Part shown: one piece after another, positions 6,275 to 47,572 of the stretch | Numbering within the stretch: position 1 is the first letter of the stretch | Layout of the letters: the number at the start of each line of letters is the position of its first letter | NCBI GenBank assembly: GCA_964473325.1 | Contig: CAYYOG010000001.1 | Location: 133,694 to 197,693 of the forward strand | Reading direction: 5' to 3' | DNA length: 64,000 nucleotides | Origin: an uncultured Thermotogae bacterium | Lineage (GTDB): Bacteria > Bipolaricaulota > Bipolaricaulia > RBG-16-55-9 > DRXL01 | The notes under the pieces: model-generated | Seen by the model: only the letters and a program-made list of their open reading frames with translations | Told to the model about the DNA's origin: nothing | The model's database searches: none | Made by a program: the position numbers and the translations under genes

Positions 6275-8017
6275 TTACATCCTCTCTGGGGCCTTCAGCC
6301 CCAGCAGATCAAACGCCCTCTCAAGCACAATTTGTACTCCACGGCAGAGTGCCAGTCTGGCTTGCATCAACTCCGGGCTTGCTTCATCCAGCACACGATG
6401 TCTCTCGTAAAAATCGTGAAAGAGCCCAGCAAGCTCATGCGCGTAGACCGCGATGAAGTGCGGCGCCAGGTGTTCTGTTGCATCGCACACGATCTGAGGG
6501 AACTCGTCGAGCTTCTTTATCAAGCCAAGTTCTTCTGCTGCCCGCAGATTGTGCAAGGCATCGTAGGGCACCGCTGGGGCTTTCTCGAAGATGCTGCGTA
6601 TGCGCGTGTACGCGTACATCACATAATAGACGGGGTTATCTTTGGACTGCTGCTTGGCCAGGTCCAGGTCGAAATTGACGTGGGAGTCAGCGCTGCGCAT
6701 GAGCACAAAGTACCGCACGACGTTGACGGCAAAGTCCTCGCGCCAGGCTTCGCCTGGGCCGTCGGGGAGCTCAACGGTGCTCTTGATCTCGTCAATGAGC
6801 TCGTCTATAGTGACGAAGGTGGCCATGCGCTTGGACATCCTGACGGGCTGGCCCCCACGGAGGAGATTCACCCACTGATGAATGAGCACACGAATTTTGC
6901 CGGGATCGCACTCTGTGGGGAGTTTTCCGCCCTCCCAGAGTGCTCGCACAGCGGCGAGTACATCTGGGTAGGTATCTTGATGGTCTGCGCCGAAGATGTC
7001 GACTATAAGATTGAAGCCACGCAGAAGCTTGTTCACGTGGTATGTTATATCAGGCAGCCGGTATGTCGGCTCGCCAGTGTGACTGCGTACCAGCACCCTG
7101 TCTTGTGGGCGTCCCAGCGCCGTCGCTTTGAACCAGATCGCGCCGTCCTTCTCGTAGGCCAAGCCCAGCTCCTGGAGCAACTGCAAGAGTTTTTCATTGG
7201 TTACAGGCACGAGGTTGCGATCCACATGGTCTTGTTGATAAAGCCAACTTTCATTGTAGTAGACGTCGAAGGCGCGCTCTGGGGGCAATCGGAAGAGCCG
7301 CGCGAGCGTTCGCTTGATCTCTGCGAACAATTCCGCTTCCGCAAACTCGGTGAATGCCTCACCGCTCGCGTTGGCCCAGCTGTCAGCGTACTGCTGGTGG
7401 ATCTTTCGAGCGATTTCATAAATATACTCCCCATAATACCCTTCTTCAGGAAACGGCGAGGGCTTCCCTAACAGCTCTAGATAGCGCGCCCGCACGGACT
7501 CGCCCAAGAGCTTCATCTGTCTTCCGGCATCGTTGTAATAATATTCTCTTGTCACGTCATAGCCGGCGTTCTCTAAGAGCCTAGAGATGACGTCGCCCAG
7601 CACTGCTTGGCGGCAGTGCCCAATGGTTAATGGCCCGGTGGGGTTGGCGCTGACGAACTCCACTTGCGCCTTCTTCCCACGCCCCAGGGAGAGCTTCCCA
7701 TAGTTGTGCCCCTGGGCGAGGATCTCTGCGAGGGCTTGCTGAATCGTCTCTCGCTTGAGGAAGAAGTTGAGAAACCCTGGCCCAACGGCTTCTATCTTCT
7801 CAAAAGGGCTTGTGTCGATGTGAGCCCCAATCTCTTCGGCGATCTGGCGGGGGGCTCTCTTGAGTTTTTCTTTGAGCACAAACGCTACCGTACTGGAAAG
7901 ATCGCCGAATTCGGGCTTCTCCGGCACGGAGACCTCTATCGGTTCTGTGAGCCCGTAGAGCCCCTGGATCGCTTCGTGGAGCTTCTCACGCACGAGTTTG
8001 CGCAGCATCACGGACAC
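6275..8017 (-). CDS. argS: Arginine--tRNA ligase
   Basis: 580 aa. SANPTGPLTIGHCR (HIGH-like) and MSKRMATFV (KMSK) class I motifs. ArgRS anticodon-binding C-terminus. Confidence 0.9.
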   Translation of the reverse strand: MSVMLRKLVREKLHEAIQGLYGLTEPIEVSVPEKPEFGDLSSTVAFVLKEKLKRAPRQIAEEIGAHIDTSPFEKIEAVGPGFLNFFLKRETIQQALAEILAQGHNYGKLSLGRGKKAQVEFVSANPTGPLTIGHCRQAVLGDVISRLLENAGYDVTREYYYNDAGRQMKLLGESVRARYLELLGKPSPFPEEGYYGEYIYEIARKIHQQYADSWANASGEAFTEFAEAELFAEIKRTLARLFRLPPERAFDVYYNESWLYQQDHVDRNLVPVTNEKLLQLLQELGLAYEKDGAIWFKATALGRPQDRVLVRSHTGEPTYRLPDITYHVNKLLRGFNLIVDIFGADHQDTYPDVLAAVRALWEGGKLPTECDPGKIRVLIHQWVNLLRGGQPVRMSKRMATFVTIDELIDEIKSTVELPDGPGEAWREDFAVNVVRYFVLMRSADSHVNFDLDLAKQQSKDNPVYYVMYAYTRIRSIFEKAPAVPYDALHNLRAAEELGLIKKLDEFPQIVCDATEHLAPHFIAVYAHELAGLFHDFYERHRVLDEASPELMQARLALCRGVQIVLERAFDLLGLKAPERM

Positions 8018-8634
8018 CCAGCACGCTCTGGATTATAGGCGTCAATCAGTTTGTCCAAAAAGCGCACAATTCTTTGCTCGATCTGTGGGGTAATCTCTTC
8101 AGCATCGAACGTATCGAGCCGGCCCCACGCCGTCAGCGCGATCTTCTTGGGCAACGACGGGTACGGCGCTACAACCACTTTGCAGTATTTTTCAAAGTTC
8201 TCGGTGCGCAAGCGCCCGATCAATCTTTTTAAGCCTTCGACAACGGGGTCGTCGAGCGCCGGGCTCTCCGCAGGACGATACTGCACGAAGACGCCCCCAA
8301 GCTTCAGCATACGCACTTGAATCTCATTGGGAATAGGTCGGTCATGGATGCCCCAGTCAGTCGTTGCTCCCGCGTGGGGTCCTGACGTCGGGGGAACAGA
8401 ATTGTACTGCACCGTCTCGCCGAGACGCACCTGATAGTCGCTGGATCGCTGGATGGGGATGGCCACCCCTGGCTTGGCAAAATAGAGACTATAGATGCCC
8501 CATCCTCCTAACCCTAACACTATAAAGATTCCTCCCACCATGATCCCACGGCGCAACAGCACCTGGGAGAACGTCGGCCGGCGCGGCATTCGCCTCTTGG
8601 GAACGGCCATTGGTCGTCTCTGGCTTCTAGGCAT
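8008..8634 (-). CDS. DUF3105-like membrane-anchored protein
   Basis: An N-terminal basic region is followed by a TM helix (GIMVGGIFIVLGLGGWGIYSLYF) and a conserved SGPH block. No enzymatic motif recognised. Confidence 0.5.
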   Translation of the reverse strand: MPRSQRRPMAVPKRRMPRRPTFSQVLLRRGIMVGGIFIVLGLGGWGIYSLYFAKPGVAIPIQRSSDYQVRLGETVQYNSVPPTSGPHAGATTDWGIHDRPIPNEIQVRMLKLGGVFVQYRPAESPALDDPVVEGLKRLIGRLRTENFEKYCKVVVAPYPSLPKKIALTAWGRLDTFDAEEITPQIEQRIVRFLDKLIDAYNPERAGCP

Positions 8635-8867
8635 AGTTGCAACCTTTACAAGCAGATTATATCATAGAATAAAACGATAAGTCCACGAAGAGTCAGGCGG
8701 GTCTGGATACCTAATGGCATCGTACGAGCAGATTGAGCATCAGCTCAAGCCTGGCTCGGTGGTGCGGGTGCTAGGCGGCGAAGAGCTGGTCATGATTGCG
8801 CTACAGATCTTCGACATCAAGATCGATCTTGAGAGAATTCTAGAAAAGAAAGGAGCTAGCTGAAATC

Positions 8868-9758
8868 ATGAATCTTAAGGTTTGGTTTCTCGCGACGCGG
8901 CCGTGGTCGTTCACCATGACGGCGATTTCTGTGGGAGTCGGCGGAGCTATCGCTGCCCTTGATGGGGCTTTCGACGTCTGGCTCTTGTTCTTAACGCTGA
9001 TCGGCGCGGTCTGCGTCCACGGCGCGACGAACCTCACCAATGACTACTTCGATTACAAGAGCGGGGTCGATCGCCCCGGCGCACCGACAACGCTCTACCG
9101 CCCTCATCCGCTGGTGCAAGGGCTCATCTCCCCCAAAGAGGTGCTCGCGGCCAGCCTGGGGCTGTATGGACTTGCGGCAATCATCGGACTATATCTGGTC
9201 TGGCTCAAAGGGCTAGCGTTGCTGTGGTTCATCCTCATCGGGGCGATAGCGAGCTTCTTTTACACTGCTGCCCCGCTCAGATACAAATATTTTGCCCTTG
9301 GGGAGCTCTCAGTCTTCTTAATGTGGGGCCCGCTGATGGTCAGCGGGACGTACTTTGTGCAGACGGGCTTGCTCAGCCCTAAAGCCGTGCTCATCTCGCT
9401 TCCGTTTGGGCTGTTAGTGGCGCTCGTTCTGCTTGCCAATAATCTAAGAGACATCGAGTACGACGGCAGCGTAGGGATCAAAACTTTAGGGACGCTGCTG
9501 GGCCAGCACAAGACGCTCTATCTCTACCACGGGCTGATCGTATCCGCCTATCTGGCTGTCGTTGTATTGATTGCACTGAAGATTCTCAGCCCCTGGGGCC
9601 TGTTAGTATTCTTCTCTGCACCTATAGCGCTCAGATTGATCCGGACGATGCAGCAGCAGATCCCCAACGACGCTGATGCCCGCACTTCCCAGCTCGATAT
9701 GCTCTTTGGGGCCTGTCTTATTCTTGGCTTGGTCTTAGAGAAATTCCTCCCCCTATGA
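8868..9758 (+). CDS. menA: UbiA-family prenyltransferase, MenA-like (1,4-dihydroxy-2-naphthoate polyprenyltransferase)
   Basis: NDYFDYKSGVD motif, multiple TM helices and an LANNLRD second Asp-rich motif. An AGGAG ribosome-binding site precedes the ATG. Confidence 0.75.
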   Translation: MNLKVWFLATRPWSFTMTAISVGVGGAIAALDGAFDVWLLFLTLIGAVCVHGATNLTNDYFDYKSGVDRPGAPTTLYRPHPLVQGLISPKEVLAASLGLYGLAAIIGLYLVWLKGLALLWFILIGAIASFFYTAAPLRYKYFALGELSVFLMWGPLMVSGTYFVQTGLLSPKAVLISLPFGLLVALVLLANNLRDIEYDGSVGIKTLGTLLGQHKTLYLYHGLIVSAYLAVVVLIALKILSPWGLLVFFSAPIALRLIRTMQQQIPNDADARTSQLDMLFGACLILGLVLEKFLPL

Positions 9759-10378
9759 GCAACGAGCGAGAGATCAGAGCCATCGCGCTGACGGTCATAG
9801 CAGCGTTCGCTCTCTGGTATTTCGCATTCCAGACAGAAGTCTGGAATTTCTGGACGAGGCTCTCGCTCGCGGCGGCGACCCTGGCCGCCAGTGCCCTCGC
9901 GCTGACACCCGACCGAGTCAAGCTCTTTCAGTTTCGTTGGCGCGATATAGCTATCGGCGTCATTTCGGCTCTCGCGCTCTATGGGATCTTCTGGCTGGGT
10001 AAGCAGATCGCTCCCCTGATCTTGCCCTTTGCAACAGCTCAGATCAGCAGCGTCTATGCCAATCGAGTGCAGCTCGATCTGGTTTGGATCGGGCTGCTCT
10101 TGTTCTTTCTTGTGGGACCCAGCGAAGAGATCTTCTGGCGTGGATTTGTGCAACGCCAGCTCAGCGAGCGATTCAGTGCCCCAGCAGCTCTTCTTGCGAC
10201 GACAGCGATCTATGCGTTGGTACACATCTGGACACTCAATCTCATATTGATACTCGCTGCGACAGGAGCGGGGCTCTTCTGGGGGTGGCTCTATCAGCGC
10301 ACGCAGAGCTTGGTATCGGTTATCGTCTCCCACGCCCTCTGGGACCTGCTTATATTTGTAGCCTTCCCGTTAATGTGA
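9755..10378 (+). CDS. CPBP (CAAX) family intramembrane metalloprotease
   Basis: EEIFWRGFVQ motif 1 and the HALWDL motif. Polytopic membrane protein. ATGA overlap with menA. Confidence 0.7.
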   Translation: MSNEREIRAIALTVIAAFALWYFAFQTEVWNFWTRLSLAAATLAASALALTPDRVKLFQFRWRDIAIGVISALALYGIFWLGKQIAPLILPFATAQISSVYANRVQLDLVWIGLLLFFLVGPSEEIFWRGFVQRQLSERFSAPAALLATTAIYALVHIWTLNLILILAATGAGLFWGWLYQRTQSLVSVIVSHALWDLLIFVAFPLM

Positions 10379-10482
10379 CATAACTCATAAAATGATATGA
10401 CAGAACTTATGGTGCAGCCTCATCAAGAGTCGGTAAAATTTATCAAGAAGAGTTATCAGCGATCAGTAAAAACGGAGGTTTT

Positions 10483-11592
10483 ATGAAGATAGCAGTTCCG
10501 AAGGAGACCGCGCCTTATGAGCGACGCGTCGCGTTAGTCCCAGAGACCGTCGCGAAGCTCGTGAAAGCTGGCATCGGAGTGCAGGTCGAAGCGGGCGCTG
10601 GCGTTGGGGCTTCGTATCCTGATGCCCAGTATCAAGCCATCGGCGCTCAGATCATTCCCGACCGAAAGACGCTCTTTGGCACTGCGGACATGGTGATCAA
10701 GGTGCAGAAGCCGACCCCAGAAGAAGTCGCGCTGCTGCGCGAGGGCAGCGTCCTGATCGGGATCTTGCAGCCGTTGCTCAATCCCGATCTCGTCCAGCAG
10801 CTCGCCCAAAAGAGGATCACAGCCCTCGCCATGGACATGATCCCCAGAATCACCCGGGCTCAGCCCATGGACGTGCTCTCGTCGCAGAGCACCGTGGCAG
10901 GCTATAAAGCCGTGCTGATGGCGACTCAGTATCTGCCCAAGTTCCTCCCCATGCTCTCGACCGCCGCGGGCACGATCACCCCAGCAAAAGTCTTTATCAT
11001 TGGTGCTGGGGTGGCAGGGCTCCAAGCGATTGCGACTGCCAGACGCTTAGGTGCTGTCGTCTCCGCGTTCGACGTCCGGCCCGCCGTCAAGCAAGAGGTC
11101 GAGAGCTTGGGTGCCAAATTCGTCGGCTTAATCATAGAAGAAGCTGCCGACAAGTCCGGCTACGCCAAGGAGCTGAGCGAAGAGCACCAGCAAAAGGAAC
11201 GCGAGCTCATCGCCAAGTATGTGAAGGAGTCCGACGTCGTGATCACGACGGCGCTCGTCCCCGGCAAGAAGGCCCCGCTGCTTATCACCAAAGATATGGT
11301 CGCTGCGATGAAGCCCGGCTCGGTGATTATAGACTTAGCTGCCGAGCAAGGCGGCAACTGTGAGCTCACCCAAGCAGGCAAAGAGGTCACGCTCGACGGC
11401 GTCACGATCGTCGGGCCGATCAATCTGCCCAGCTCGATGAGCTATCACGCCAGTCAAATGTACTCGCGCAACATCGCAAGCTTTCTCAGCTTACTCATCA
11501 CCAAAGAGAAGCAGCTCAATCTCGATTTCAATGACGAGATCATCAAAGGCTGCTGTGTCACTCATCAAGGTCAGATCATGCTGCAAAAATAA
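10483..11592 (+). CDS. pntA: NAD(P) transhydrogenase alpha subunit, part 1 (dI, NAD(H)-binding)
   Basis: MKIAVPKETAPYERRVALVPE..., an alanine-dehydrogenase-like fold. GAGVAG Rossmann motif. Confidence 0.9.
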   Translation: MKIAVPKETAPYERRVALVPETVAKLVKAGIGVQVEAGAGVGASYPDAQYQAIGAQIIPDRKTLFGTADMVIKVQKPTPEEVALLREGSVLIGILQPLLNPDLVQQLAQKRITALAMDMIPRITRAQPMDVLSSQSTVAGYKAVLMATQYLPKFLPMLSTAAGTITPAKVFIIGAGVAGLQAIATARRLGAVVSAFDVRPAVKQEVESLGAKFVGLIIEEAADKSGYAKELSEEHQQKERELIAKYVKESDVVITTALVPGKKAPLLITKDMVAAMKPGSVIIDLAAEQGGNCELTQAGKEVTLDGVTIVGPINLPSSMSYHASQMYSRNIASFLSLLITKEKQLNLDFNDEIIKGCCVTHQGQIMLQK

Positions 11593-11615
11593 CGAGCGAG
11601 CACTAAGGAGGCTTT

Positions 11616-11909
11616 ATGACTGAAGCACTGTTAGCAGCAATTTATATCTTCGTCGTCGCGATGTTCTTAGGGTTCGCGGTGATTACCAAGGTCCCGCCCT
11701 TGCTCCATACCCCCTTGATGTCCGGCTCCAATGCCATCTCTGGAATCACGATCATCGGGGCCCTGATCATCGCCGGACGCCAAGAGGGTTGGCTGCAGAC
11801 GATCCTCGGGCTCATCGCGATCATCTTAGCCATGACCAACGTTGTAGGTGGGTACTTGGTCACGGACCGAATGCTGCAGATGTTCAAGCGAAAGCCGGGT
11901 GAGAAGTAA
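11616..11909 (+). CDS. pntAB: NAD(P) transhydrogenase alpha subunit, part 2 (membrane)
   Basis: 97-aa hydrophobic protein between pntAA and pntB. Confidence 0.85.
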   Translation: MTEALLAAIYIFVVAMFLGFAVITKVPPLLHTPLMSGSNAISGITIIGALIIAGRQEGWLQTILGLIAIILAMTNVVGGYLVTDRMLQMFKRKPGEK

Positions 11910-13303
11910 TGTCTCTACGAGAAGTGCTCATTGCGTTGGCGTACATGATAGCGTCGGCGTGCTTTGTCATCGGGCTGATGTGGCTGCAGTCGCCCAAGCG
12001 CGCACGCGCCGGAAATCTCTTGTCCTCGTTGGGAATGCTTGTAGCGATCGTAGCCACGCTCTTCATCTCAGGGATCAAAGACTACACAATGATCATCATT
12101 GGGGCATTGATCGGCTCAGCCGTGGGAGCGGTGATGGCTCGCACAGTGCAGATGACGGCCATGCCCCAGATGGTCGGGCTCTTTAACGGCTTCGGTGGCG
12201 GGGCCTCAGCGCTCATCGCTGCTGCCGAGTTTTTCAAATACGCTGCTAACCCCAGCATCCTGACGCTCGACGTCTCCATCTCGATCATGCTCGCCATGAT
12301 CGTTGGGGCGATTACGTTCTCCGGAAGCATGATCGCTGCAGGGAAGCTTCAAGGGGTGGTCAACGAGCGTCCTATCACTTACCCCTATCAAAATATCATC
12401 AATCTGATTTTCTTCCTGACGATCGTCGCCGCGGCGGTCTTCTTGGTCGTCAACTTCGGGCATCCGTGGATCTTTCTCTATCTCACAATCGCAGCGTTGA
12501 TCTTCGGTGTGCTCTTTACGATCCCCATCGGCGGGGCAGACATGCCCGTCGTGATCTGCTTCTTGAACGCCTTGTCGGGCGTCGCTGCGGCGATGGCTGG
12601 GTTCGTCATTAAGAACAACGCCCTTATTATCGCAGGTTCGTTGGTGGGAGCATCGGGGGTTATTCTCACGCAAATTATGTGCTGGGCGATGAACCGCCCG
12701 ATCACCAACGTGCTCTTTGGGGCATTTGGCGCGGTCGTGACCGCGGGATCGTCCGCGACCGCCACAACCAAGACCGTCAAGCCCATTCAGGCCGACGAAG
12801 CTGCGATCTTGCTTGGGTATGCGCAGCTCGTGATCATCGTTCCCGGCTACGGCATGGCCGTCTCGCAAGCCCAGCATGCTGTCAGACAATTAGCTGACGA
12901 GCTTGGCAAGCGCGGGGTGACCGTCAAATACGCGATCCATCCTGTCGCGGGTCGTATGCCGGGACACATGAACGTTCTGTTAGCCGAAGCCAATGTCCCC
13001 TATGACCAGCTCTATGACATGGACCAGATCAATGACGAATTTCAGAATGCTGACGTCGCGCTGATCGTCGGGGCCAACGACGTGGTCAACCCCGCAGCCC
13101 GCTATGATAAGAGCAGCCCCATCTACGGGATGCCCATTCTCAATGCTGATCACGCTAAGCAAATTATAGTGCTCAAGCGCAGCATGAACCCAGGGTTTGC
13201 GGGGATCGAGAACGAGCTCTTCTATAACGACAAGACGCGAATGCTCTTTGGCGATGCAAAGGAGTCGCTCACGAAGCTCATCAATGAAGTGAAGAGCATC
13301 TAG
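11909..13303 (+). CDS. pntB: NAD(P) transhydrogenase beta subunit
   Basis: 464 aa. N-terminal TM bundle and C-terminal dIII NADP(H)-binding domain (GYGMAVSQAQH...GANDVVNP). Confidence 0.9.
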   Translation: MSLREVLIALAYMIASACFVIGLMWLQSPKRARAGNLLSSLGMLVAIVATLFISGIKDYTMIIIGALIGSAVGAVMARTVQMTAMPQMVGLFNGFGGGASALIAAAEFFKYAANPSILTLDVSISIMLAMIVGAITFSGSMIAAGKLQGVVNERPITYPYQNIINLIFFLTIVAAAVFLVVNFGHPWIFLYLTIAALIFGVLFTIPIGGADMPVVICFLNALSGVAAAMAGFVIKNNALIIAGSLVGASGVILTQIMCWAMNRPITNVLFGAFGAVVTAGSSATATTKTVKPIQADEAAILLGYAQLVIIVPGYGMAVSQAQHAVRQLADELGKRGVTVKYAIHPVAGRMPGHMNVLLAEANVPYDQLYDMDQINDEFQNADVALIVGANDVVNPAARYDKSSPIYGMPILNADHAKQIIVLKRSMNPGFAGIENELFYNDKTRMLFGDAKESLTKLINEVKSI

Positions 13304-13359
13304 GGAGTGTAGTGTGCTCGTAGGGCGGAGTGAGGGCCTCTATCACGCTTGGGGCGTGT

Positions 13360-13389
13360 TTGTAACGTGTCCCGACCATCAGGTACAAT
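13360..13389 (+). promoter_or_regulatory. Putative sigma70-type promoter for the acyl-CoA dehydrogenase gene
   Basis: TTGTAA (13360-65), an 18-nt spacer, then TACAAT (13384-89). An AGGAGG ribosome-binding site precedes the ATG at 13410. Confidence 0.4.
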
Positions 13390-13409
13390 GTGGCCGCTAG
13401 GAGGCATTC

Positions 13410-14552
13410 ATGGACTACCCGTTCTCCGAAGAGCATCGTATCTTCCGTCGTGCTGTCAGACGCTTCGTCGAAGAAGAGCTGAATCCGCACGTGGATGAGT
13501 GGGAGGCCGCCGGCATCTTCCCTAAAGAGCTTTATAAAAGAATGGGCGAGCTGGGATTCTTAGGGATTCGCTTTGACGAAAAATACGGCGGCGCTGGAGC
13601 AGATATCTGGTCCACCGTTGTCTTCTGCGAGGAGCTGGGACGGTGTCGCTCTCGTGGACTGACCATGAGCGTCCTGGTCCACACAGATATGAGCTCGCCA
13701 TATCTGTATGAGTACGGCTCCGAGGCCCTCAAACAAAAATATCTGCCTGCGCTCATCCGCGGGGAGAAAGTTGCAGCCATCGCCCTCACTGAGCCTCACG
13801 GCGGGTCAGATCTCGCCGCCATGCAGACCACCGCCAAGAAGAAGGGCAATCAGTATATCTTGAACGGGAGCAAGACGTTCATCACCAACGCGATCAATGC
13901 TGATATCTTCTTCGTAGCGGGCAAGACCGAGCCCAGTGCGGGCCATCGCGGGATCTCGCTCTTCTTAGTCGAGCGCGGCACTCCAGGGTTTGAGATCCAA
14001 AAGCTCCCGAAGAAATTAGGGATGCACGCCTCTGATACGGGAGAATTGTCTTTCGATAACTGCCCCGTGCCCGCGGACCATCTCATCGGGGAGGAGAACA
14101 AGGGCTTTTATTATGTTATGCAAGGGCTGCAGAACGAACGCTTCGTCTCGTGCGTGGCATGCACTTCTTCAGCCCAGCAAGCCCTCGAAGACGCGATTCG
14201 CTATGCTCAAGAGCGCGAGCTCTTTGGCAAGAAGCTCTCGGAGTTTCAGATTACGCGCCATAAGTTTGCCAAGCTCCAGACGAAGCTCGAAGCCGCCAGA
14301 CAATTGCTCTACCACGCAGCACGCCTGATGGAGGCCGGCGAGGACGCCACGATGGTCGTCTCAATGTGTAAAGCGTTCTGCGCTGACGTGGCCTGCGAAG
14401 TCGCCGATGAATGTCTCCAAATTCACGGGGGCTATGGCTACATCGAAGAGTATGACATCGCCCGGTTCTACAGAGATATTCGTCTCTGGAAGATCGGCGC
14501 AGGCACCACTGAAGTGATGTACGAAATTATCGCCAAACGAATGGGGATTTAG
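13410..14552 (+). CDS. Acyl-CoA dehydrogenase
   Basis: 380 aa. ACAD N-terminal, middle and C-terminal domains (YGGAGAD...TEPHGGSDLA...IHGGYGY). Confidence 0.85.
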   Translation: MDYPFSEEHRIFRRAVRRFVEEELNPHVDEWEAAGIFPKELYKRMGELGFLGIRFDEKYGGAGADIWSTVVFCEELGRCRSRGLTMSVLVHTDMSSPYLYEYGSEALKQKYLPALIRGEKVAAIALTEPHGGSDLAAMQTTAKKKGNQYILNGSKTFITNAINADIFFVAGKTEPSAGHRGISLFLVERGTPGFEIQKLPKKLGMHASDTGELSFDNCPVPADHLIGEENKGFYYVMQGLQNERFVSCVACTSSAQQALEDAIRYAQERELFGKKLSEFQITRHKFAKLQTKLEAARQLLYHAARLMEAGEDATMVVSMCKAFCADVACEVADECLQIHGGYGYIEEYDIARFYRDIRLWKIGAGTTEVMYEIIAKRMGI

Positions 14553-14590
14553 TAGTGTAGGGGCGAACGGCCGTTCGCCCCTACTTTTTC
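14548..14590. terminator. Bidirectional rho-independent terminator
   Basis: A perfect 14-bp inverted repeat GTAGGGGCGAACGG/CCGTTCGCCCCTAC is followed by TTTTTCT on the plus strand and preceded by an A-run. It sits between convergent genes. Confidence 0.8.
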
Positions 14591-14599
14591 TATAAAAAA

Positions 14600-15316
14600 C
14601 TATGGATCTACGTGCAGTGCCGCGACGATCTCCCCTGAGAACGTCCACGCCGTCTGACCGAGAACTGTCAGAGTCATATTCCGGACGTAGACAGAGCCTT
14701 CGAGCTCCGGGTCGCGTGGGTCGAGCTGCTTGTGCTTGAGCTTTAGCTCTGCTGTTAGCTGCGCTCCGTGCTGCACCAGTCCGGTAATCTTGTCTTTCTC
14801 ATACGTCGCCGTGATCGAGATTGGCGCGGTAATATCGCCGATCATATTGATCGCCGGGGCGACAACCTTGACGAACGTCTGCCCGTCTACTATGTTCTTT
14901 GTCGGATCGAGCATGAGGTGCTGCACCACGGTGCCAAAGCTGCCCAAATCGTAGCGGCCCTCGACCATCACGCGGCCGCTCACGAACGCGAAAGCTGCTC
15001 CCTCAATGAGCACACCAGCAGGGACAAGCCCCCCAAAGACGAACCGTCCGGCAGCGTGTCCCAGATCATAGCCCATCTCCGCGAGCTTGCCCAGATCACC
15101 GGCAAGATACGCTGAGCCCGCGAACTTATAGATGACAGCCCCGCCGGAATTATACCCCGGCGCGATCTCTATGCGATACGAGACAGCATAGGGCAGATCG
15201 CCCAAAAAGACCATCTGAGAGACCGTAAGCGTCCGGCCCTCTAGCGCCACGCTCCCTAGCCCGACAGCGAACACACCCAGAACAAACAGAAGAGATAGCT
15301 TCCCAAGACGAGCCAT
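14600..15316 (-). CDS. Hypothetical secreted protein (N-terminal signal peptide)
   Basis: 238 aa. MARLGKLSLLFVLGVFAVGLGSVA leader. No recognised domain. Confidence 0.5.
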   Translation of the reverse strand: MARLGKLSLLFVLGVFAVGLGSVALEGRTLTVSQMVFLGDLPYAVSYRIEIAPGYNSGGAVIYKFAGSAYLAGDLGKLAEMGYDLGHAAGRFVFGGLVPAGVLIEGAAFAFVSGRVMVEGRYDLGSFGTVVQHLMLDPTKNIVDGQTFVKVVAPAINMIGDITAPISITATYEKDKITGLVQHGAQLTAELKLKHKQLDPRDPELEGSVYVRNMTLTVLGQTAWTFSGEIVAALHVDP

Positions 15317-15406
15317 AGAATCCTCCTTCAGCTACGATCGTTTTGTGACGAAAATATTCTAGCAAACCCAAGCTGACCAGAAAAGTAACGGACGTTACAT
15401 TCACAG

Positions 15407-33321: not shown

Positions 33322-35289
33322 TCACTCGGTTTTGATCTGCCAGAGCGCCACGCCGTCGTCACCGCCGGAGGCTAGGTATTTGCCGTCTGGCGAAATAGCA
33401 AGGGCTCTGTTCTCACTGGTATGCCCTTGAAAAGAGCCAACCCACTCGTCACTTTCAAGATCCCACAGCTTGATCGTGCTCCCTTCCGCAATGGCCAAGA
33501 CCTTCTTGCTAGGGACAAAGGCTACTGCTTTATTCAAATAACGCGACTCTGCTTGATAGCTACGTACCTCCTGACCATCTGAAACTTTCCAAATCTTAAT
33601 ACCATAAGAACCATAATCGTATTCAATAGAGGCCGCAACAAGCTGGCCATCAGATGAAAAAGCCACAGCACAACCTGCTGAGCAATAGCGATTCCTAAGG
33701 AGCGTGCGCACCTCTTTGCCATCACGAGCGTTATAGAGCATCACACCGTCCCCGTTGACAGCAAGAAGCTCACTATCCGGCGAGAAGGCGATCCCTGTTC
33801 CTCGAATCCATTGAATCCATGGGACAAAGAGCTTGCTGCCATCTGAGACCTTCCAGACCTCAAGTCGATCAGCACAAACAGCTGCCAAGAGCGTTCCATC
33901 TGGTGAGAAAGCGAGCGAACGATTTATTATGGAAAAACTACAGGAGAGAGAGCGCACACGCTTTCCATCTTTGACTCGCCAGAGCGTGATGGCTTTCGTT
34001 TCAGCCACGGCCAAGAGCTGGCCGTCAGGAGAGAAGGCCAATGCATATCCCGACGTGGGCAGCATTCCCACAAGACGACCCTCAGGCATCTGCCATAGTT
34101 TCACGCCTTCCGCCGGATACGAAAACGAAGTGGCCAGCAAGGTACCATCAGGGGAGAAAGCAAGCGATTCTATTCCTTCCCAAATTGTTCTGAGAACATG
34201 AACGCCTCCAAGATTCAGCTTCAAAGACTTATCAGAGATCTGCCAGAGCTTGAGCGTTGCACCTCCTGAGGCTAAATATTTCCCGTCGGGGGAGAACACC
34301 AGGGGCATACCCGCTTGCCAATTAAGCCGCCCCAGAAACCGTCCCTCAGGACTCCAGAGCTTGATGGTCCCCCCAGAGCTTGACGCGAGCAGATCACCTT
34401 GTGGCGAAAAGAGCACGTTAGGGGGCAATTGCGCTTTGCGATGAGCAGAGATAGTCCGCACGAGACTCCCCTCAGGCAAACGCCACAACTTGATAACCCC
34501 GTCTGGAGTTGCGGACGCAAGCAGCGATCCTCCTATGGAGAGGTTAACAGGACCAAAAGCTGGTTCTTTTATCGTAAACAGCTCTGCTCCGTCGCTCACC
34601 CTCCAAACCCTAACAGTGCCACTTGTGAAGCTGCTGGAGGCTATCAGTTGCCCATCATCGGAGAACTCCACGAAATTTCTATAGCCGAGATACCCTGTAG
34701 GGATAGCCCTTTCTTGGCCAGTTTCGATCTCCCACATTTTAAGGGTGTTTTCGTATTCAAAAGCGAGCCAGCGCCCATCGGGTGAGAAGGCAGCTCTCCC
34801 ACATAAGGACTTGCACGGAAATCTCTGTACAGTCTCCCCGGTGGCGAGGCTCCAGAGTCGAATCTCTTTGCCATCATCATCTCCAGAAGCCAAAAACCGC
34901 CCATCGGGCGAAAAATCGACCCATTCGATTCGGCGCTTATGTCCTGCCAACATGCGTACCAAGCTGCCGTCTTGCGCGCGGAAGATCCCGATCACCCCAA
35001 AGCCCATTGGTACTGCTATAAACTCTCCATCGGGAGAGAACGCTGCGCTCCACGCCAAAAGCCGAGGCTTGATCCACACCGCACCGCGCAGCCAGTCCTC
35101 ACTCGCTTCTACGGGAACCGATACAGGCTGATCGAACAGATACGTGATCGGCTTGGTCTGCCGGGGCTTTTCGATCCAAACCTGTACCTGAAAGATCATA
35201 TAGATCGTGAAAAATACCAATAAAACGACAAGTCCCCAAGGCCGTCGCTTCCGTTGTTGTTCGAGCTGCATATCAATTCTCCCCTGCAC
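33322..35289 (-). CDS. Membrane-anchored WD40 repeat (beta-propeller) protein
   Basis: 655 aa. N-terminal TM helix (WGLVVLLVFFTIYMIF). More than 12 repeats of FSPDG...LAS...D..IKLW. Confidence 0.75.
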   Translation of the reverse strand: MQGRIDMQLEQQRKRRPWGLVVLLVFFTIYMIFQVQVWIEKPRQTKPITYLFDQPVSVPVEASEDWLRGAVWIKPRLLAWSAAFSPDGEFIAVPMGFGVIGIFRAQDGSLVRMLAGHKRRIEWVDFSPDGRFLASGDDDGKEIRLWSLATGETVQRFPCKSLCGRAAFSPDGRWLAFEYENTLKMWEIETGQERAIPTGYLGYRNFVEFSDDGQLIASSSFTSGTVRVWRVSDGAELFTIKEPAFGPVNLSIGGSLLASATPDGVIKLWRLPEGSLVRTISAHRKAQLPPNVLFSPQGDLLASSSGGTIKLWSPEGRFLGRLNWQAGMPLVFSPDGKYLASGGATLKLWQISDKSLKLNLGGVHVLRTIWEGIESLAFSPDGTLLATSFSYPAEGVKLWQMPEGRLVGMLPTSGYALAFSPDGQLLAVAETKAITLWRVKDGKRVRSLSCSFSIINRSLAFSPDGTLLAAVCADRLEVWKVSDGSKLFVPWIQWIRGTGIAFSPDSELLAVNGDGVMLYNARDGKEVRTLLRNRYCSAGCAVAFSSDGQLVAASIEYDYGSYGIKIWKVSDGQEVRSYQAESRYLNKAVAFVPSKKVLAIAEGSTIKLWDLESDEWVGSFQGHTSENRALAISPDGKYLASGGDDGVALWQIKTE

Positions 35290-37740: not shown

Positions 37741-38355
37741 ATGAAGAAGACCAAGCGGGCACAACGCGGGAGCGTCTTGTTGCTCATCATCGCGATGATG
37801 GTGCTTATGGGGTGGTCCGTCTCCCAGCCCATGCCCCAGCAGCCCTCCGCCTTGCCGCCTGGGACCGCTCCAGCGAAACTCACCGAGCCTGCGCCATCCC
37901 CCCACCATGACAGTGGGAATGGCTCGGACTTCATCGACCCGCAGCGCTTCCCCGCTCGACCCCCGGCCCATAGATCGGCGCAGAGTTCCAAGACGATAGA
38001 GACTCCCGCTATCATTCCTGGGCGCGCCGTCCACCTTGACCCCACAGGCTCACTCACCGTTCCGCTCTCGGGACGGATTGAGTTCGTCGTAACCCTCACA
38101 AATCTTGAGAGAGAGGACTGGCAAGTCATCGGCGAGCTCTACGTCACCAAAGGCGATGGCAGAACCGAAAAGCTCTTCGGCCCACGGGCCATCCGCCTTG
38201 GGCCCACCCAGCGCCTGCGCCTGCCTGTAGGCTTTACTGCCAACCCCAAGCGCTTTCCCCCTGGCCCCACCCAATTCCTCGCCGTTCTCAAAGACCAGAG
38301 CGGCAAAGCCATCGACCAGGCGATCATCACGTTTAACATCAAGCCTGGACAGTGA
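37741..38355 (+). CDS. Hypothetical secreted protein
   Basis: Signal peptide LLLIIAMMVLMGWSVS. Pro-rich linker then a beta-rich domain. Confidence 0.5.
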   Translation: MKKTKRAQRGSVLLLIIAMMVLMGWSVSQPMPQQPSALPPGTAPAKLTEPAPSPHHDSGNGSDFIDPQRFPARPPAHRSAQSSKTIETPAIIPGRAVHLDPTGSLTVPLSGRIEFVVTLTNLEREDWQVIGELYVTKGDGRTEKLFGPRAIRLGPTQRLRLPVGFTANPKRFPPGPTQFLAVLKDQSGKAIDQAIITFNIKPGQ

Positions 38356-38507: not shown

Positions 38508-39077
38508 ATGATCGAAGTGCGGTTTCACGGACGGGGCGGGCAAGGAGCCGTCGTCGCCTCGGAGATCTTAGCGACAGCCCTTTTCAAAGAGGGCAAATTT
38601 GTTCAAGCTTTTCCAGCCTTTGGGGTGGAGCGTCGCGGCGCACCCGTGATGGCCTTCTTACGCTTCGATGACACCCCTATCCGACGACGGTGCCAGATCT
38701 ACGAGCCCGATCACGTCGTCGTCCTCGACCCGACGCTCTTATTAGCCGTAGACGTCACGGCAGGGCTGAAGTCCCACGGAACTATTCTCATCAATAGTGA
38801 CTCTCCTCCAGAAAGCTTTACGGCTCTCCAAAAATTTTTAGTTGCGACCGTGCCCGCGGGGGAGATCGCCGTGGCGCATAAGCTGGGCACGCGAACAAAT
38901 CCCATCGTCAACACTGCGATCTTAGGGGCGTTCGCGCGCCTGACGGGCTTTGTCAGCTTAGAGGCACTGCTCGATGCAATTGCTGAAAAGATTCCGGAGC
39001 GCCAGCGCGAGCGCAACCAAGCCGCCGCCCGCACAGCATACGAAGCCGTGAAGATCATGGAAAGGAGCACCCTATGA
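38508..39077 (+). CDS. porG: Pyruvate/2-oxoacid:ferredoxin oxidoreductase gamma subunit
   Basis: MIEVRFHGRGGQGAVVASEILA... PorG signature. Confidence 0.9.
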   Translation: MIEVRFHGRGGQGAVVASEILATALFKEGKFVQAFPAFGVERRGAPVMAFLRFDDTPIRRRCQIYEPDHVVVLDPTLLLAVDVTAGLKSHGTILINSDSPPESFTALQKFLVATVPAGEIAVAHKLGTRTNPIVNTAILGAFARLTGFVSLEALLDAIAEKIPERQRERNQAAARTAYEAVKIMERSTL

Positions 39078-40729
39078 AAAAGCCCATCGTCTTCACCAGC
39101 GAGCAAGAGATGCCGCCCATGGCCGTCTCGCTCGCCGATATGGGGCACAACCGCACAGGGAGCTGGCGGTATCTGCGCCCGATCTATAGCGAAAAGATTG
39201 CGCCATGCAAGAATGCGTGTCCCGTGGGCAACGATATCCCGAGAATTCTCTCTTTAGTCTCCCAAGGGCGTTATGAAGACGCCTGGCGGCTCTTCCGAGA
39301 GACTTCGCCCTTGCCAGGGGTCTGCGGGAGGGTCTGTTATCACCCGTGCGAGAGCTTTTGCAACCGAAAGAACTTCGACGAAGCGCTCTCGATCGCTGCA
39401 GTAGAGCGCTTCGTCGCCGACGCGTGCTTCGATCTGGAGGACAAGATCCCAGAGCGCCCGAAGCGATCCGAGAAGATCGCGATCGTCGGCTCTGGACCAG
39501 CGGGGCTGACGTGCGCGTACTTCTTGGCCAAAGACGGCTACGCCGTGACGGTCTTCGAAGCAGCCAGCCAGCCGGGTGGGATGTTGCGCCTGGGGATTCC
39601 GGCGTATCGTCTCCCTAGAGAAGTCTTAAATCGCGAGATTGATCTCATCGCCCGCTGGGGGGTCGAGTTCCGCACCAACACGAAGATCGGGCAAGATATA
39701 TCTATCGAGAAGCTCTGGGACTCTCACGACGCCGTCTTCATCGCGACCGGGGCCCACAGCGGACGCGCTCTGAACATCCCAGGCGAAGAGTTTGCTACCC
39801 AAGGGCTTGAGTTTCTCAAAGCCGTCAATGCTGGGAAGACTGTCACTTTAGGCAAGCAGGTGCTCATCATCGGTGGTGGGAACACCGCGATGGACTGCGC
39901 CCGCACCGCGCTGAGACTTGGCGCACAGCCCATCGTCGTCTACCGCCGCACGCGTGAAGAGATGCCCGCTATTGCTGAAGAGATCGAAGAAGCCGAGCAC
40001 GAGGGGACGCGGTTTGAATTCCTCGCCGCGCCCATAGCTATTCGCAAGCTCAACGGGAAGCTTGAAGTGCAGTGTATTCGTATGAAGCTTGGTGAGCCCG
40101 ATGCGAGTGGGCGCCGCCGCCCCGTGCCTATCCCCGGCTCGGATTTCATCATGTACGCCGATACTATGCTGAAAGCCGTGGGCGAGGAGCCCGAGCTGAC
40201 GTTCTTGTCGGAGCACGTGGAGACCAGCGAGGGCATTGTGATCGAGCGTGCTCAGGGGATACTCGAGCGCGCGGGGATCTTCATCGGCGGTGACGCCCAG
40301 ACCGGTCCCAGCACCGTTACACAAGCAATGCGCTCCGGCAAAGAGACTGCTCAAGCTATCACGCGATTCTTACGCGGTGAACGAAAGCCCAAAGCAGTCA
40401 AGCTCGAAGAGGCCCTGCGCGTGAACTTCAATTACTTCACCCACACGCCCAGGGTCCCCACGCCCCAGCTTCCAGTCTCGGAGAGAACCTCGAACTTCTC
40501 GGAGACCAAGGGCGCGATCTCGGCCGAGCAAGCGCGTGCCGAAGCGAACCGTTGCTTCTCCTGTGGGGTCTGCAATAACTGCGATAACTGCTGGGTCTTC
40601 TGCCCCGATGCGGCTATCGTACGCATGAATGGCACCTATGAAGTAAACTACGATTTCTGCAAAGGCTGCGGGGTCTGCGTTGAAGAATGCCCCCGCAACG
40701 TGATCTCGCTCGTCGAGGAGGAGCTATGA
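39074..40729 (+). CDS. Fusion protein of a GltD-like NAD(P)H-binding FeS flavoprotein (N-terminal) and a PorD-type 2x[4Fe-4S] delta subunit (C-terminal)
   Basis: 551 aa. N-terminus has SPLPGVCGRVCYHPCESFC, GSGPAGL (FAD) and GGGNTAMDCAR (NAD(P)). C-terminus has CFSCGVCNNCDNCWVFCP...CKGCGVCVEECP. ATGA overlap with porG, and its stop overlaps the porA start. Confidence 0.8.
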   Translation: MKKPIVFTSEQEMPPMAVSLADMGHNRTGSWRYLRPIYSEKIAPCKNACPVGNDIPRILSLVSQGRYEDAWRLFRETSPLPGVCGRVCYHPCESFCNRKNFDEALSIAAVERFVADACFDLEDKIPERPKRSEKIAIVGSGPAGLTCAYFLAKDGYAVTVFEAASQPGGMLRLGIPAYRLPREVLNREIDLIARWGVEFRTNTKIGQDISIEKLWDSHDAVFIATGAHSGRALNIPGEEFATQGLEFLKAVNAGKTVTLGKQVLIIGGGNTAMDCARTALRLGAQPIVVYRRTREEMPAIAEEIEEAEHEGTRFEFLAAPIAIRKLNGKLEVQCIRMKLGEPDASGRRRPVPIPGSDFIMYADTMLKAVGEEPELTFLSEHVETSEGIVIERAQGILERAGIFIGGDAQTGPSTVTQAMRSGKETAQAITRFLRGERKPKAVKLEEALRVNFNYFTHTPRVPTPQLPVSERTSNFSETKGAISAEQARAEANRCFSCGVCNNCDNCWVFCPDAAIVRMNGTYEVNYDFCKGCGVCVEECPRNVISLVEEEL

Positions 40730-41898
40730 CGCCCACGCTCACGGGAACCAAGAAAGTCGTCACAGGGAATCACGCCGTCTCGTACGGAGCGATGCTCGCG
40801 CGCGTCCAAGTGATCTCAGCATATCCCATTACGCCGCAGACGCAGGTCGTTGAGCTCTTGAGCGAATTCTGCGCCAATGGGACGCTGCGCGCCAAATTCA
40901 TCAAAGTCGAGTCAGAACACTCAGCGATGGCCGCGCTCATCGGCGCAGCGAGCGCTGGAGCAAGAACGTTTACAGCGACGAGTGCCCACGGCTTGGCGCT
41001 CATGCACGAGATGCTCCACTGGGCCGCCGGAGCGAGACTGCCCATCGTGATGGCCGATATCAACCGAGCGATGGGCCCGCCGTGGTCCGTCTGGACCGAT
41101 CAGAATGACAGTCTCTCTCAGCGCGATGTCGGCTGGATGCAGATCTACTGCGAAAGCAACCAAGAAGTCTTGGACACCGTCATTCAAGCATACAAAGTCG
41201 CTGAGAGAGTCTTGATGCCCGCAATGTTGATATTAGACGCGTTCGTGCTCTCACACACCGCTGAACAGATCGAGATTCCCGATCAAGCACTCGTCGATCA
41301 GTATCTGCCGCCGTATCAGCCCATATATAAGCTGGACGTGAACGACCCGCGCTCGTTTGGGGCGCTTGCCCCACCTGATGTTTATATGGAGCTGCGCTAC
41401 AAGATGCACCAAGCGATGGAAGAAGCACTCACGGAGTGGGCCCGCGCAGACGAAGAATACTATGAGCTTTTCGGGCGACGCTATGGGCTGATCGAACCCT
41501 ATGGCGCTGACGACGCTGATCTGATCTTAGTGACGTCAGGAACAGTCACGAGCACGGCGCGGGAAGTGATCGACGCACTGCGCGCAGAGGGCCGCCGGGT
41601 CGGCTTGCTCAAGATGCGAGTCTTTAGACCATTCCCGGCTCAGCTTGTACGCGAGGCGTTAGCGAACGCTCAGAAAGTCGCGGTCCTAGACAGAAATATT
41701 AGCTTTGGGATGGGCGGAATTTTTGCTCAGGAGATCAAGTCGGCGCTCTATAACACACACGATCGCCCGCCGATCTTCGGGTTTGTCGCCGGCTTGGGTG
41801 GACGAGACATCACCCCGAAAGTTATCAGAGAGATCATCGAGTACGCTGAGAGCCATGACGAGCCAGAAGATCTGATCTGGGTGGGGGTGAAACGATGA
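40725..41898 (+). CDS. porA: Pyruvate/2-oxoacid:ferredoxin oxidoreductase alpha subunit
   Basis: MTPTLTGTKKVVTGNHAVSYGAM...YPITPQT. Confidence 0.9.
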
Positions 41899-46374: not shown

Positions 46375-46434
46375 CTGGACGCGAGCCCCCTAATGTGTTA
46401 TATTGAGGGACACCGTGTGAAAGGAGGCCATAGT

Positions 46435-47046
46435 ATGGCGTTTTCTTTACCGCCGTTGCCGTATCCATACGACGCTCTAGAGCCGCACATTGACCAGCTG
46501 ACGATGGAGATCCATCACACCAAGCACCACGCAGGATATGTGAACAATCTCAACAAAGCGTTGGAGTCTGCGCCAGAGTTGGCCAGCAGGTCTCTAGAGG
46601 AGCTGCTAGCCAACAATTGCGCGATTGTTCCAGAGAAGATCAAAACAGCGGTGCGCAATCACGGCGGCGGACATATCAATCATTCGTTCTTCTGGGAGAT
46701 CATGGGGCCCAATGCCGGTGGTCAGCCCTCTGGAAAGCTCGCCGAGGCGATCACACAGACTTTCGGGAGCTTCGAGAAATTCAAGGAGAGATTTACAGAA
46801 GCAGCGTTAGGGCGCTTTGGCTCCGGCTGGGCCTGGCTCGTGCTCACCCCAGAGAGAAAGCTCGAAGTCTACTCGACGGCTAACCAAGATAGCCCTCTAA
46901 TGGAAGGCAAGATCCCCATCTTAGGGATCGACGTTTGGGAGCACGCGTATTATCTCAAATATCAGAACCGCCGCGCCGACTATGTCCAGGCGTGGTGGAA
47001 CGTCGTGAACTGGGCTGCCGTCGAAAAACGCTTCACTTCCATTTGA
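46435..47046 (+). CDS. Fe/Mn superoxide dismutase
   Basis: [32 protein letters not shown]...DVWEHAYY metal ligands. AGGAGG ribosome-binding site. An extended -10 (TGTTATATT) lies upstream. Confidence 0.9.
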
Positions 47047-47572
47047 TGGTACAGCCCATGGGCTGCGTCTCTTTTAAGTCAGGCTCCCTGCCGGCGAGCA
47101 CGGCGTCCAGGGCATCTTTGAGATAGTGTTTGGTCACTTTATTGGGATCTTGATAGTTGTCATCAATCGTGCCGTGATAGCGCAGCTTCATCGCTGAGTC
47201 GAAGAGAAAGATCTCTGGGGTGCGCTGGGCGCCGTAGGCTCTCGCGATCTGTTGGGTCTCGTCGTACAGATACGGGAAGGGATAGCCCTTCTCTTTCGCT
47301 CTTTTAATCATGTTGTCGAAGCTGTCTTCAGGGTATTTCACAGGGTCATTGGAGTTGATGACGAGAAATTGCACGCCCTTGGGTTCGTACTCTTTGGCGA
47401 GCGCGATCATGCGAGCTTCATACGCCTTCACATATGGGCAATGATTGCAGCTGAAGATCACAGCGACGGCCTTTTTGTTCTTATAATCTGAGAGCTTATA
47501 GGTCTTGCCGTCGACACCTTTAAGCTGGAAGTCTGGGGCTTGGCTACCGTACTTGAGCATAGAGAAAATCAC
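47033..47572 (-). CDS. Thioredoxin-fold redoxin (AhpC/TSA/TlpA-like thiol-disulfide oxidoreductase)
   Basis: FSCNHCPY CxxC motif. Convergent with sod, with a 14-nt overlap. Confidence 0.7.

Follow-up and report, generated by a model that had tools for sequence, protein, structure and literature searches.

A circularly permuted NfnL-like flavoprotein module within the PorD subunit of a 2-oxoacid oxidoreductase operon from an uncultured bacterium

Known flavoprotein-linked oxidoreductases and the locus

2-Oxoacid:ferredoxin oxidoreductases (OFORs) can be made pyridine-nucleotide-dependent by an added flavoprotein. This is the case for pyruvate:NADP+ oxidoreductase (PNO) of Euglena and Cryptosporidium, in which a cytochrome-P450-reductase-type domain with flavin mononucleotide and flavin adenine dinucleotide (FMN/FAD) is attached to the C-terminus of a single-chain PFOR, and for phenylglyoxylate:NAD+ oxidoreductase (PadEFGHI), in which the flavoprotein is a separate subunit, PadH. 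Neither of them has the arrangement described here, in which an NfnL-like cassette is inserted into PorD, the delta subunit of POR/VOR-type enzymes. The gene lies on a 64,000-nucleotide stretch (64 kb, hereafter the window) of contig CAYYOG010000001.1 from an uncultured bacterium of the Bipolaricaulota lineage, and encodes a protein of 551 amino acids (aa), which we refer to as PorD*. A preliminary description of this DNA had presented the protein as a GltD-like flavoprotein fused N-terminally to PorD.

By analogy, the probable closest functional precedent is the 2-oxoglutarate:NADP+ oxidoreductase (KGOR) of Azoarcus evansii. A study of 2003 reportedly found subunits of 63, 62 and 37 kDa, of which the alpha subunit of ~62 kDa is said to carry FAD, [4Fe-4S] clusters and an NADPH site and fits the family of 540–580 aa, while the partner is said to be a two-subunit 2-oxoglutarate-type OFOR (63 + 37 kDa); both ferredoxin and NADP+ were reportedly served. 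Citing papers support that NADP+ is reduced by this OFOR (PMC10134865), and KGOR-alpha has been placed in the GltD/NfnB family beside NsoC (PMC10134865). The likeness to the present locus lies in the combination of an OFOR with a GltD-family FAD/Fe-S subunit of ~60 kDa, seen here in the operon and in the synteny of 36/44 loci. When a Rhodocyclaceae homologue was used as query, only Betaproteobacteria matches were obtained, with at least 81% identity, and they gave no link to Azoarcus/Aromatoleum. Proteobacterial loci were also considered as representatives of the 63/62/37-kDa composition and rejected, as L028 and L037 have separate PorC, PorA (424–459 aa) and PorB (333–342 aa).

The NfnB/NfnL proteins (4ylf_B of T. 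maritima and 5jca_L of P. furiosus) share with the flavoprotein part of PorD* 40–42% identity, the FAD/NADPH Rossmann domains, two [4Fe-4S] clusters (predicted in PorD*), the Glu ligand (E111), the N5 Arg (R179) and the YRR motif. In contrast to PorD*, they possess a contiguous N-terminal RCx2Cx4Cx3CP motif and an NfnA partner, whereas the motif is here split and the module is embedded in PorD: instead of a contiguous N-terminal RCx2Cx4Cx3CPV, we found RC494x2C497 at residues 493–497 and C45x3C49PV at residues 45–51. No NfnA/NfnS or GltB partner is present in the window, where the neighbours are Por, Ior and superoxide dismutase genes.

The Bfu-type NfnA and StnC proteins (9bov_A, 9n5u_A, 8oh5_C) resemble PorD* in their permuted order and in having the module embedded between other Fe-S domains. 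They differ from it by a Lys at the proximal cluster, by NuoG/Fdh-like domains and by BfuBC/StnAB partners; NuoG/Fdh-like domains and BfuBC partners are absent from both the fusion protein and the window. NsoC and E. coli YgfK are sequence relatives of the Bfu-type NfnL-like domain, and PorD* scores below the cutoffs of the PRK12814 and YgfK models. Finally, the Por-Bfu systems, in which POR genes are clustered with BfuABC, have likewise been hypothesised to be pyridine-nucleotide-coupled PORs (PMC9304861), but they rely on a HydBC-like FMN bifurcating module made of separate subunits, none of which occurs here.

Insertion and circular permutation in PorD*

The gene is a single open reading frame (ORF) with an ATG start and is preceded by the ribosome-binding-site-like sequence GGAAAGGAG. 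Pfam matches to Fer4_20 (aa 43–118, E 2.6e-20), to Pyr_redox_2 (aa 134–422, E 1.3e-29) and to a 4Fe-4S dicluster (aa 499–545) agree with NCBIfam that a GltD/NfnB-like NAD(P)H:Fe-S flavoprotein and the PorD ferredoxin subunit reside on one polypeptide. The ORF and its twofold nature were thus found as first described; the arrangement of the parts was not. The preliminary description had taken the N-terminus for a complete GltD-like protein followed by some 90 aa of PorD, whereas the PorD-like ferredoxin part comprises only the last ~52–54 aa (from residue 498 or 500 to 551), aa 1–42 are the arm of PorD itself, and the inserted flavoprotein begins without the first RCxxC of its kind, this segment being displaced to aa 467–499. 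Both Cys motifs quoted at the time were located (C494–C510 and C529–C539). The first of them, CFSCGVCNNCDNCWVFCP, had been assigned as a whole to PorD: this holds for C500, C503, C506 and C510, which form a CxxCxxCxxxCP motif, and fails for the two remaining Cys, C494 and C497, which are the RCxxC of the flavoprotein.

The first 42 residues hold NRTGSWRYLRPIY, in which T28, W31 and R32 are invariant in a 27-sequence alignment. In the native protein, the PorD_Arch, TIGR02179 and VorD profiles match aa 498–550; TIGR02179 (PorD_KorD) scores 64.1 bits, above its cutoff of 60.05, and covers profile positions 26–78. We joined aa 1–42 to aa 498–551 in silico, deleting aa 43–497. This de-inserted construct raised the TIGR02179 score to 90.3 bits and widened the match to profile positions 9–78, and the scores of PorD_Arch (71.8 bits for the native protein) and VorD (PRK09623; 65.4 bits) reached 89.2 and 82.1 bits, respectively, every match being in one stretch. 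Moreover, the construct aligned contiguously with the PorD chain 9bt4_G (residues 15–84, 71.5 bits), for which the native protein gave 49.4 bits over residues 33–84, and it also aligned with the delta domain of oxalate oxidoreductase (5c4i_B). The arm motif at aa 28–36 (T-G-x-W-R...R-P) corresponds to residues 15–31 of 9bt4_G, and the insert parts this motif from the first Cys motif. In canonical PorD, the first Cys follows RPxYxxE after two or three residues; at this point, PorD* has an insertion of 457 residues (aa 43–499).

The arm is also the segment most conserved with respect to the Fraserbacteria gene L002, with 95% aa identity compared to 75–83% in the other segments. Across 44 loci, the presence of an arm-type motif was associated with an adjacent OFOR gene, which was found for 33/35 proteins with the motif and 3/9 without it (Fisher p = 3e-4). 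The two CxxCxxCxxxCP motifs (C500–C510 and C529–C539) are invariant in 45 sequences. PorD* shares with the canonical PorD/VorD delta subunits (TIGR02179; 9bt4_G) the arm motif, both Cys motifs and the slot between porC and porA, but these are single domains of 80–105 aa, a small-protein range that its 551 aa exceed.

The flavoprotein module itself is not in its usual order. Its N-terminal Fe-S motif is cut down to C45-x3-C49-P, and the stretch ERxxNFxE...EAxRCxxC follows the flavoprotein core, at aa 467–497. On the native protein, Fer4_20 aligns with aa 43–118 over profile positions 30–108 only. With phmmer, aa 459–499 matched residues 7–47 of P. furiosus NfnL (5jca_L) and aa 42–436 matched residues 49–473, and T. 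maritima NfnB (4ylf_B) gave a split match in the same permuted order. Moving aa 445–499 ahead of aa 43–444 restored the canonical C-x2-C-x4-C-x3-CP spacing and increased the Fer4_20 score from 72.7 to 99.6 bits (profile positions 2–108), that of TIGR01316 from 341.8 to 355.3 bits (positions 1–449) and that of TIGR01318 from 321 to 339 bits. The native scores for these last two gltA/gltD models lie below their cutoffs of 471.75 and 482.95, respectively. In an AlphaFold2 model, the predicted local distance difference test (pLDDT) values are 89–94 for the displaced segment (aa 460–489), mostly >90 for the flavoprotein (aa 119–439) and <50 for the linker (aa 440–448).

Residues 119–439 show 40–44% identity with NfnB/NfnL and NfnA chains. 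The best matches in both sequence and fold were 9bov_A, 9n5u_A and 8oh5_C (E down to 5e-121; template modelling score 0.77–0.80). Given that aa 43–508 are colinear with residues 102–576 of 9bov_A and residues 102–574 of 8oh5_C, the NfnL-like domains of the Bfu-type NfnA/StnC proteins have the same permuted order. The YgfK model is colinear over aa 36–541, C-terminal dicluster included.

An end-to-end N-terminal fusion was ruled out by the de-insertion and permutation constructs. To judge from these profile and chain comparisons, PorD* is a PorD protein in which a circularly permuted NfnB/NfnL-like module is inserted between the arm and the two-cluster ferredoxin domain. Because of the permutation, both termini of the cassette lie in the distal-cluster binding loop, and C497 and C500 are therefore only two residues apart. 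With both of its ends at one cluster-binding loop, such a redox module can be spliced into different Fe-S proteins, and the same cassette order is found in PorD here, in the NuoG-like proteins of StnC/NfnA and in YgfK. Our literature searches returned no description of PorD::GltD fusions or of this insertion/permutation topology in PorD, and none was contained in the reviews and genome papers that we consulted.

Predicted cofactors and electron acceptor

Across the 45 sequences, no variation occurs at C45, C49, C88, C92, C96, E111, R112, R493, C494, C497 or any of the eight PorD Cys. C84 was discarded as a cluster ligand, since it varies between C, M, H and T across the same set. When PorD* is aligned with C. 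saccharolyticus NfnA, the residue numbers of the latter are higher by 59 throughout the Fe-S region. The cryo-electron microscopy structure of that protein shows Cys108, Cys147, Cys151 and Lys170 as ligands of A7, the FAD-proximal cluster (PMC11829005), and these residues correspond to C49, C88, C92 and E111. K170 of StnC occupies the same position as this Lys, and NfnB has a Glu there (PMC10482914), as do 45/45 of our sequences. The stretch GRVC88-x3-C92-x3-C96...E111-R112 is invariant and aligns with 4ylf_B and 5jca_L, the motifs described for NfnB being RCx2Cx4Cx3CPV and GRVC...C...C...ER (PMC6405883). The predicted ligands of the proximal cluster are C49, C88, C92 and E111; for the distal cluster, the Cys that are left and the analogy to NfnB point to C494, C497, C45 and C96 as probable ligands. 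The spacing of two residues between C497 and C500 should bring a PorD cluster close to the distal cluster.

The alignment with NfnB that had been proposed as a check on the flavin and nucleotide contacts came out in favour of the flavoprotein assignment. R179 aligns with R187 of T. maritima NfnB, R201 of the P. furiosus protein and R239 of StnC, the residue at flavin N5. The FAD-binding GxGxxG corresponds to G139-S-G-P-A-G144 and GGGNTAMD to residues 267–274. Y290-R291-R292, Arg pair included, is kept in 41/45 sequences and aligns with the NADP-binding strand of NfnB, in which two conserved Arg bind the 2'-phosphate (PMC6405883); the Arg of this triplet may do the same, although exactly which residues are involved is a projection from the alignment.

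We propose, with a probability of roughly 0.6 and by analogy with the systems above, that PorD* is the ferredoxin-independent delta subunit of a 2-oxoacid:NADP+ oxidoreductase formed by PorC, PorD*, PorA and PorB. The fusion probably lets this enzyme pass electrons straight to NADP+ rather than to free ferredoxin. The cassette would hold one FAD, an NADP(H) site and two [4Fe-4S] clusters, and the PorD clusters would be placed where an external ferredoxin has been proposed to dock on NfnB. Electrons would flow from the 2-oxoacid and thiamine pyrophosphate (TPP) in PorB to the PorB [4Fe-4S] cluster and the two PorD clusters, and onward through the distal cluster, the proximal cluster and FAD to NADP+. 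The net reaction would be pyruvate or a branched-chain 2-oxoacid + coenzyme A (CoA) + NADP+ -> acyl-CoA + CO2 + NADPH, in which no free ferredoxin takes part. PorC, PorA and PorB are assigned by their profiles to the POR/VOR families, and these profiles do not separate pyruvate from 2-oxoisovalerate as substrate. The adjacent IorA::NfnL-like/IorB pair would perform the same chemistry on arylpyruvates.

The E0' of NADP+ is -320 mV. That of the pyruvate couple is near -500 mV (PMC9304861), and the oxidative direction should therefore be strongly favoured. If the proposal is true, this organism oxidises pyruvate or branched-chain 2-oxoacids and arylpyruvates with direct formation of NADPH, bypassing the ferredoxin pool, and very many bacteria, uncultured and cultured, of anaerobic and aerobic lineages, do likewise. 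Redox-balance assumptions in metabolic reconstructions would then change, and genes that are now annotated inconsistently would be concerned.

Several observations weigh against this proposal. The AlphaFold2 model is poor exactly at the PorD parts (pLDDT 33–51 for the arm and 39–54 for the ferredoxin domain), and both the grouping of the Cys into clusters and the closeness of the distal and PorD clusters are deduced from homology. The module retains the Glu ligand and the N5 Arg, and the Glu of NfnB is associated with a very low-potential proximal cluster; should the flavin potentials be strongly crossed, it would be kinetically unfavourable for the same low-potential branch to supply two single electrons in succession. 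Moreover, 8/44 loci have no OFOR neighbour. As for the A. evansii enzyme, its partner is reportedly not a POR/VOR-type gamma/alpha/beta set, and its alpha subunit is a candidate, by family placement, for exactly this architecture.

In the 64-kb window, we found no separate porD, no other ferredoxin motif, no NfnA-type [2Fe-2S] motif and, besides the iorA fusion, no other GltD-like gene. These results bear on an alternative that we hold to be rather unlikely, namely that the complex is a dual-acceptor or redox-bridging enzyme. The OFOR would then continue to trade electrons with free ferredoxin at the PorD or distal clusters, and the inserted module would be a built-in ferredoxin:NADP+ oxidoreductase by which electrons are split or the two pools equilibrated. 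The reported use of both ferredoxin and NADP+ by A. evansii KGOR speaks for this alternative. The distal cluster of NfnB is the predicted ferredoxin site (PMC6405883), which fits such a role; however, neither the operon nor the window contains a ferredoxin gene, and the insertion sets the PorD clusters at the distal-cluster loop, where they may occlude the site for an external ferredoxin.

It is improbable that the FAD works as that of NfnL does, in NADPH-driven pyruvate synthesis or in 2-oxoacid oxidation confurcated with a further donor. A flavin wired to the TPP site would in that event make an electron-bifurcating OFOR, the second electron going to a higher-potential acceptor, an idea to which we likewise attach little weight. 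E111 does align with the Glu of NfnB and not with the Lys of the non-bifurcating StnC/NfnA, and R179 with the N5 Arg, but non-bifurcating GltD also has the Glu ligand. The Arg, for its part, is found in non-bifurcating StnC as well (PMC10482914). Pyruvate formation from NADH and ferredoxin has been hypothesised for Por-Bfu complexes (PMC9304861), yet neither an NfnA/NfnS-like [2Fe-2S] flavoprotein nor any Bfu gene is encoded in the operon or the 64-kb window.

A version of the same architecture that is specific for NAD(H) is, in our view, quite improbable. OFORs can be NAD+-linked, as illustrated by phenylglyoxylate:NAD+ oxidoreductase, and the Por subunits match the PadE/F/G/I models, at scores below cutoff. 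Against this, the Y-R-R aligned to NADP-binding NfnB/NfnL chains is conserved, and the replacement of these Arg in 4/45 relatives suggests that specificity varies in a minority.

There is next to no chance that the gene is an artefact in which a frameshift or misassembly near 40350–40450 joined a GltD-like gene to porD, the refutation that the preliminary description had foreseen, because the in-frame architecture is conserved (27 aligned homologues, 44 genome loci, hundreds of cluster representatives), the codon-position pattern reveals in-frame purifying selection in the linker with stops in both other frames, and a simple gene join would not yield the PorD arm at the N-terminus. Compared with the 78%-identical L002 gene, the linker has 12 differences at codon position 3 and 6 at positions 1 and 2 together, and differences are concentrated at position 3 over the linker and permuted segment as a whole. 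The 551-aa ORF is a genuine gene.

Operon, relatives and neighbouring genes

The fusion gene lies between porC and porA with an ATGA overlap on either side and so takes the place of the delta gene in an operon of the four-subunit POR/VOR type. All five por/ior junctions (39074, 40726, 41895, 42782 and 45763) are ATGA stop-start overlaps, implying tight translational coupling of the six genes (Table 1). The porA ORF opens at 40687, and its likely start is M14 at 40726, which overlaps the stop of the fusion gene; the orthologue at locus L082 has 390 aa. Promoter scans stayed at background level and terminator scans gave weak boundary hints only.

Table 1. Genes of the por/ior operon and segments of PorD* (positions in the window)
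Feature	Residues	Position	Strand	Basis or remarks
porC, gamma	189 aa	38508..39077	+	PF01558, E 5e-42; PRK08534, 226.4 vs cutoff 225
porD::nfnL-like fusion	551 aa	39074..40729	+	NF009410; delta slot
PorD N-terminal arm, 'NRTGSWRYLRP'	aa 1–42	39074..39199	+	de-inserted construct matches PorD profiles
Helical Fe-S domain of NfnL/GltD-like module	aa 43–118	39200..39427	+	Fer4_20
FAD + NADP(H) Rossmann domains	aa 119–439	39428..40390	+	Pyr_redox_2, aa 134–422
Linker	aa 440–466	40391..40471	+	low pLDDT; in-frame purifying selection vs L002
Displaced N-terminal Fe-S segment of NfnL/GltD, 'ERxxNFxE...EAxRC494xxC497'	aa 467–499	40472..40570	+	
PorD 2x[4Fe-4S] ferredoxin domain + stop	aa 500–551	40571..40729	+	C500/503/506/510, C529/532/535/539
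porA, alpha		40726..41898	+	POR_N + PFOR_II; PorA_Arch, 513 bits (cutoff 550), from residue 22
porB, beta, TPP subunit	296 aa	41895..42785	+	TPP_enzyme_C; PRK11864, 420 vs cutoff 405
iorA with C-terminal NfnL/GltD-like module	994 aa	42782..45766	+	TIGR03336 IOR_alpha; Pyr_redox_2
iorB	203 aa	45763..46374	+	PF01558; IOR beta models

A second fusion is found in the same operon. The 994-aa IorA matches TIGR03336 IOR_alpha over aa 7–572 (676.9 bits, cutoff 650.9) and Pyr_redox_2 over aa 683–976, whereas an ordinary IorA of ~580 aa ends directly after the second ferredoxin motif. Some 100 cluster representatives of 985–1040 aa, with 48–91% identity, share this IorA fusion, Bipolaricaulota and Longimicrobiales among them. 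At the junction, the Cys follow one another as C561-x2-C564-x2-C567-x3-C571-x2-C574 (C571-AD-C574). The module keeps C574, C613, C617 and the Glu of 'VER', the proximal cluster ligands, and has no equivalents of the distal-cluster Cys C494, C497 and C96; IorA's own second ferredoxin cluster therefore appears to stand in for the distal one. The two fusions agree in the spacing of two residues between a Cys of an OFOR cluster and a Cys of a flavoprotein cluster. One operon thus presents two independent wiring solutions, as the PorD insertion keeps both NfnL clusters and the IorA fusion seems to swap the distal cluster for its own.

A scan of species-representative genomes yielded 44 loci for a 540–630-aa protein with an in-frame C-terminal PorD-like dicluster. 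The taxa include Fraserbacteria, Deltaproteobacteria, Gemmatimonadota, Planctomycetota, Acidobacteriota, Actinomycetota, Alpha- and Betaproteobacteria and Verrucomicrobia, with two isolates, Sulfurisoma sediminicola BSN1 and Verrucomicrobia bacterium LP2A. At 36 of these 44 architecture-positive loci, PorA/PorB-like genes lie within 6 kb of the fusion and on its strand, and three gene orders were seen. The fusion is located upstream of porA-porB in 23 loci (with porC in front in 13 of them), and the order porC-porA-porB-fusion was observed in 11. The six-gene cluster recurs in Fraserbacteria (L002) and at L082, where porC and the fusion form one 769-aa ORF and synteny with the window extends over the remaining neighbourhood.

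Beyond L082 (7001–9310), PorC is fused in front of PorD::NfnL in the relatives P0020, P0072 and P0111; proteins of this kind have 745–769 aa and represent a gamma-delta-flavoprotein triple fusion. At L076–L081, a distant OFOR (PorA-like, 27–30% identity) comes after the fusion in Verrucomicrobia LP2A and, to judge from a matching tblastn pattern, in Gemmatimonadota, Acidobacteriota and Chitinophagaceae. At L081 (Verrucomicrobia LP2A, 6872–12279), this OFOR is encoded by one ORF of 1261 aa, which may belong to the single-chain 'IOR family'. L015, L016, L017, L057, L059 and L065 encode the permuted module and the C-terminal dicluster without a PorD arm and without an OFOR neighbour; this arm-less subgroup presumably serves a different partner. 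At L001 (Syntrophobacterales, 13330–15358), the order is fusion-porA-porB without an adjacent porC, and an aminotransferase gene and rnf genes come next.

Full-length relatives occur in dozens of phyla, with 38–100% identity. In the protein search, relatives of 540–590 aa with 47–100% identity and ~100% coverage came from Bipolaricaulota/Acetothermia, Syntrophobacterales, WOR-3 and others, and 27 full-length homologues (48–86% identity) were aligned end to end. Using the junction segment (aa 440–551) as query, we obtained 956 representatives of 50%-identity clusters at E<=1e-10; each of the best 150 of these 956 matches was a single stretch, nearly all covering ~aa 449–549. The NCBIfam model NF009410 (PRK12771, 'NAD(P)-binding protein') matches aa 25–549 over profile positions 30–565 of 566 with 569 bits against a cutoff of 516, so that a curated model for the whole architecture already exists. 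The gene is a member of a widespread, already catalogued and little-studied family, which databases name inconsistently ('PorD', 'YgfK subunit', 'glutamate synthase', 'NAD(P)-binding protein').

The operon is flanked by coaE, an exonuclease gene, a tlyA-like methyltransferase gene, a gene for a hypothetical protein and a Fe/Mn superoxide dismutase gene. The latter (46393–47046, +) begins 19 nt downstream of iorB, with a promoter-like site at 46376–46404 and a terminator-like hairpin at 47052–47065; its product may shield the OFORs, which are oxygen-sensitive. Directly upstream of porC, a 204-aa ORF (37741–38355, +) has a signal-peptide-like N-terminus and no Pfam match, and a 208-aa gene without Pfam matches takes the same position at L082. 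Further upstream, a 655-aa ORF on the opposite strand (33322–35289, -) contains WD40-like repeats and an N-terminal hydrophobic segment.

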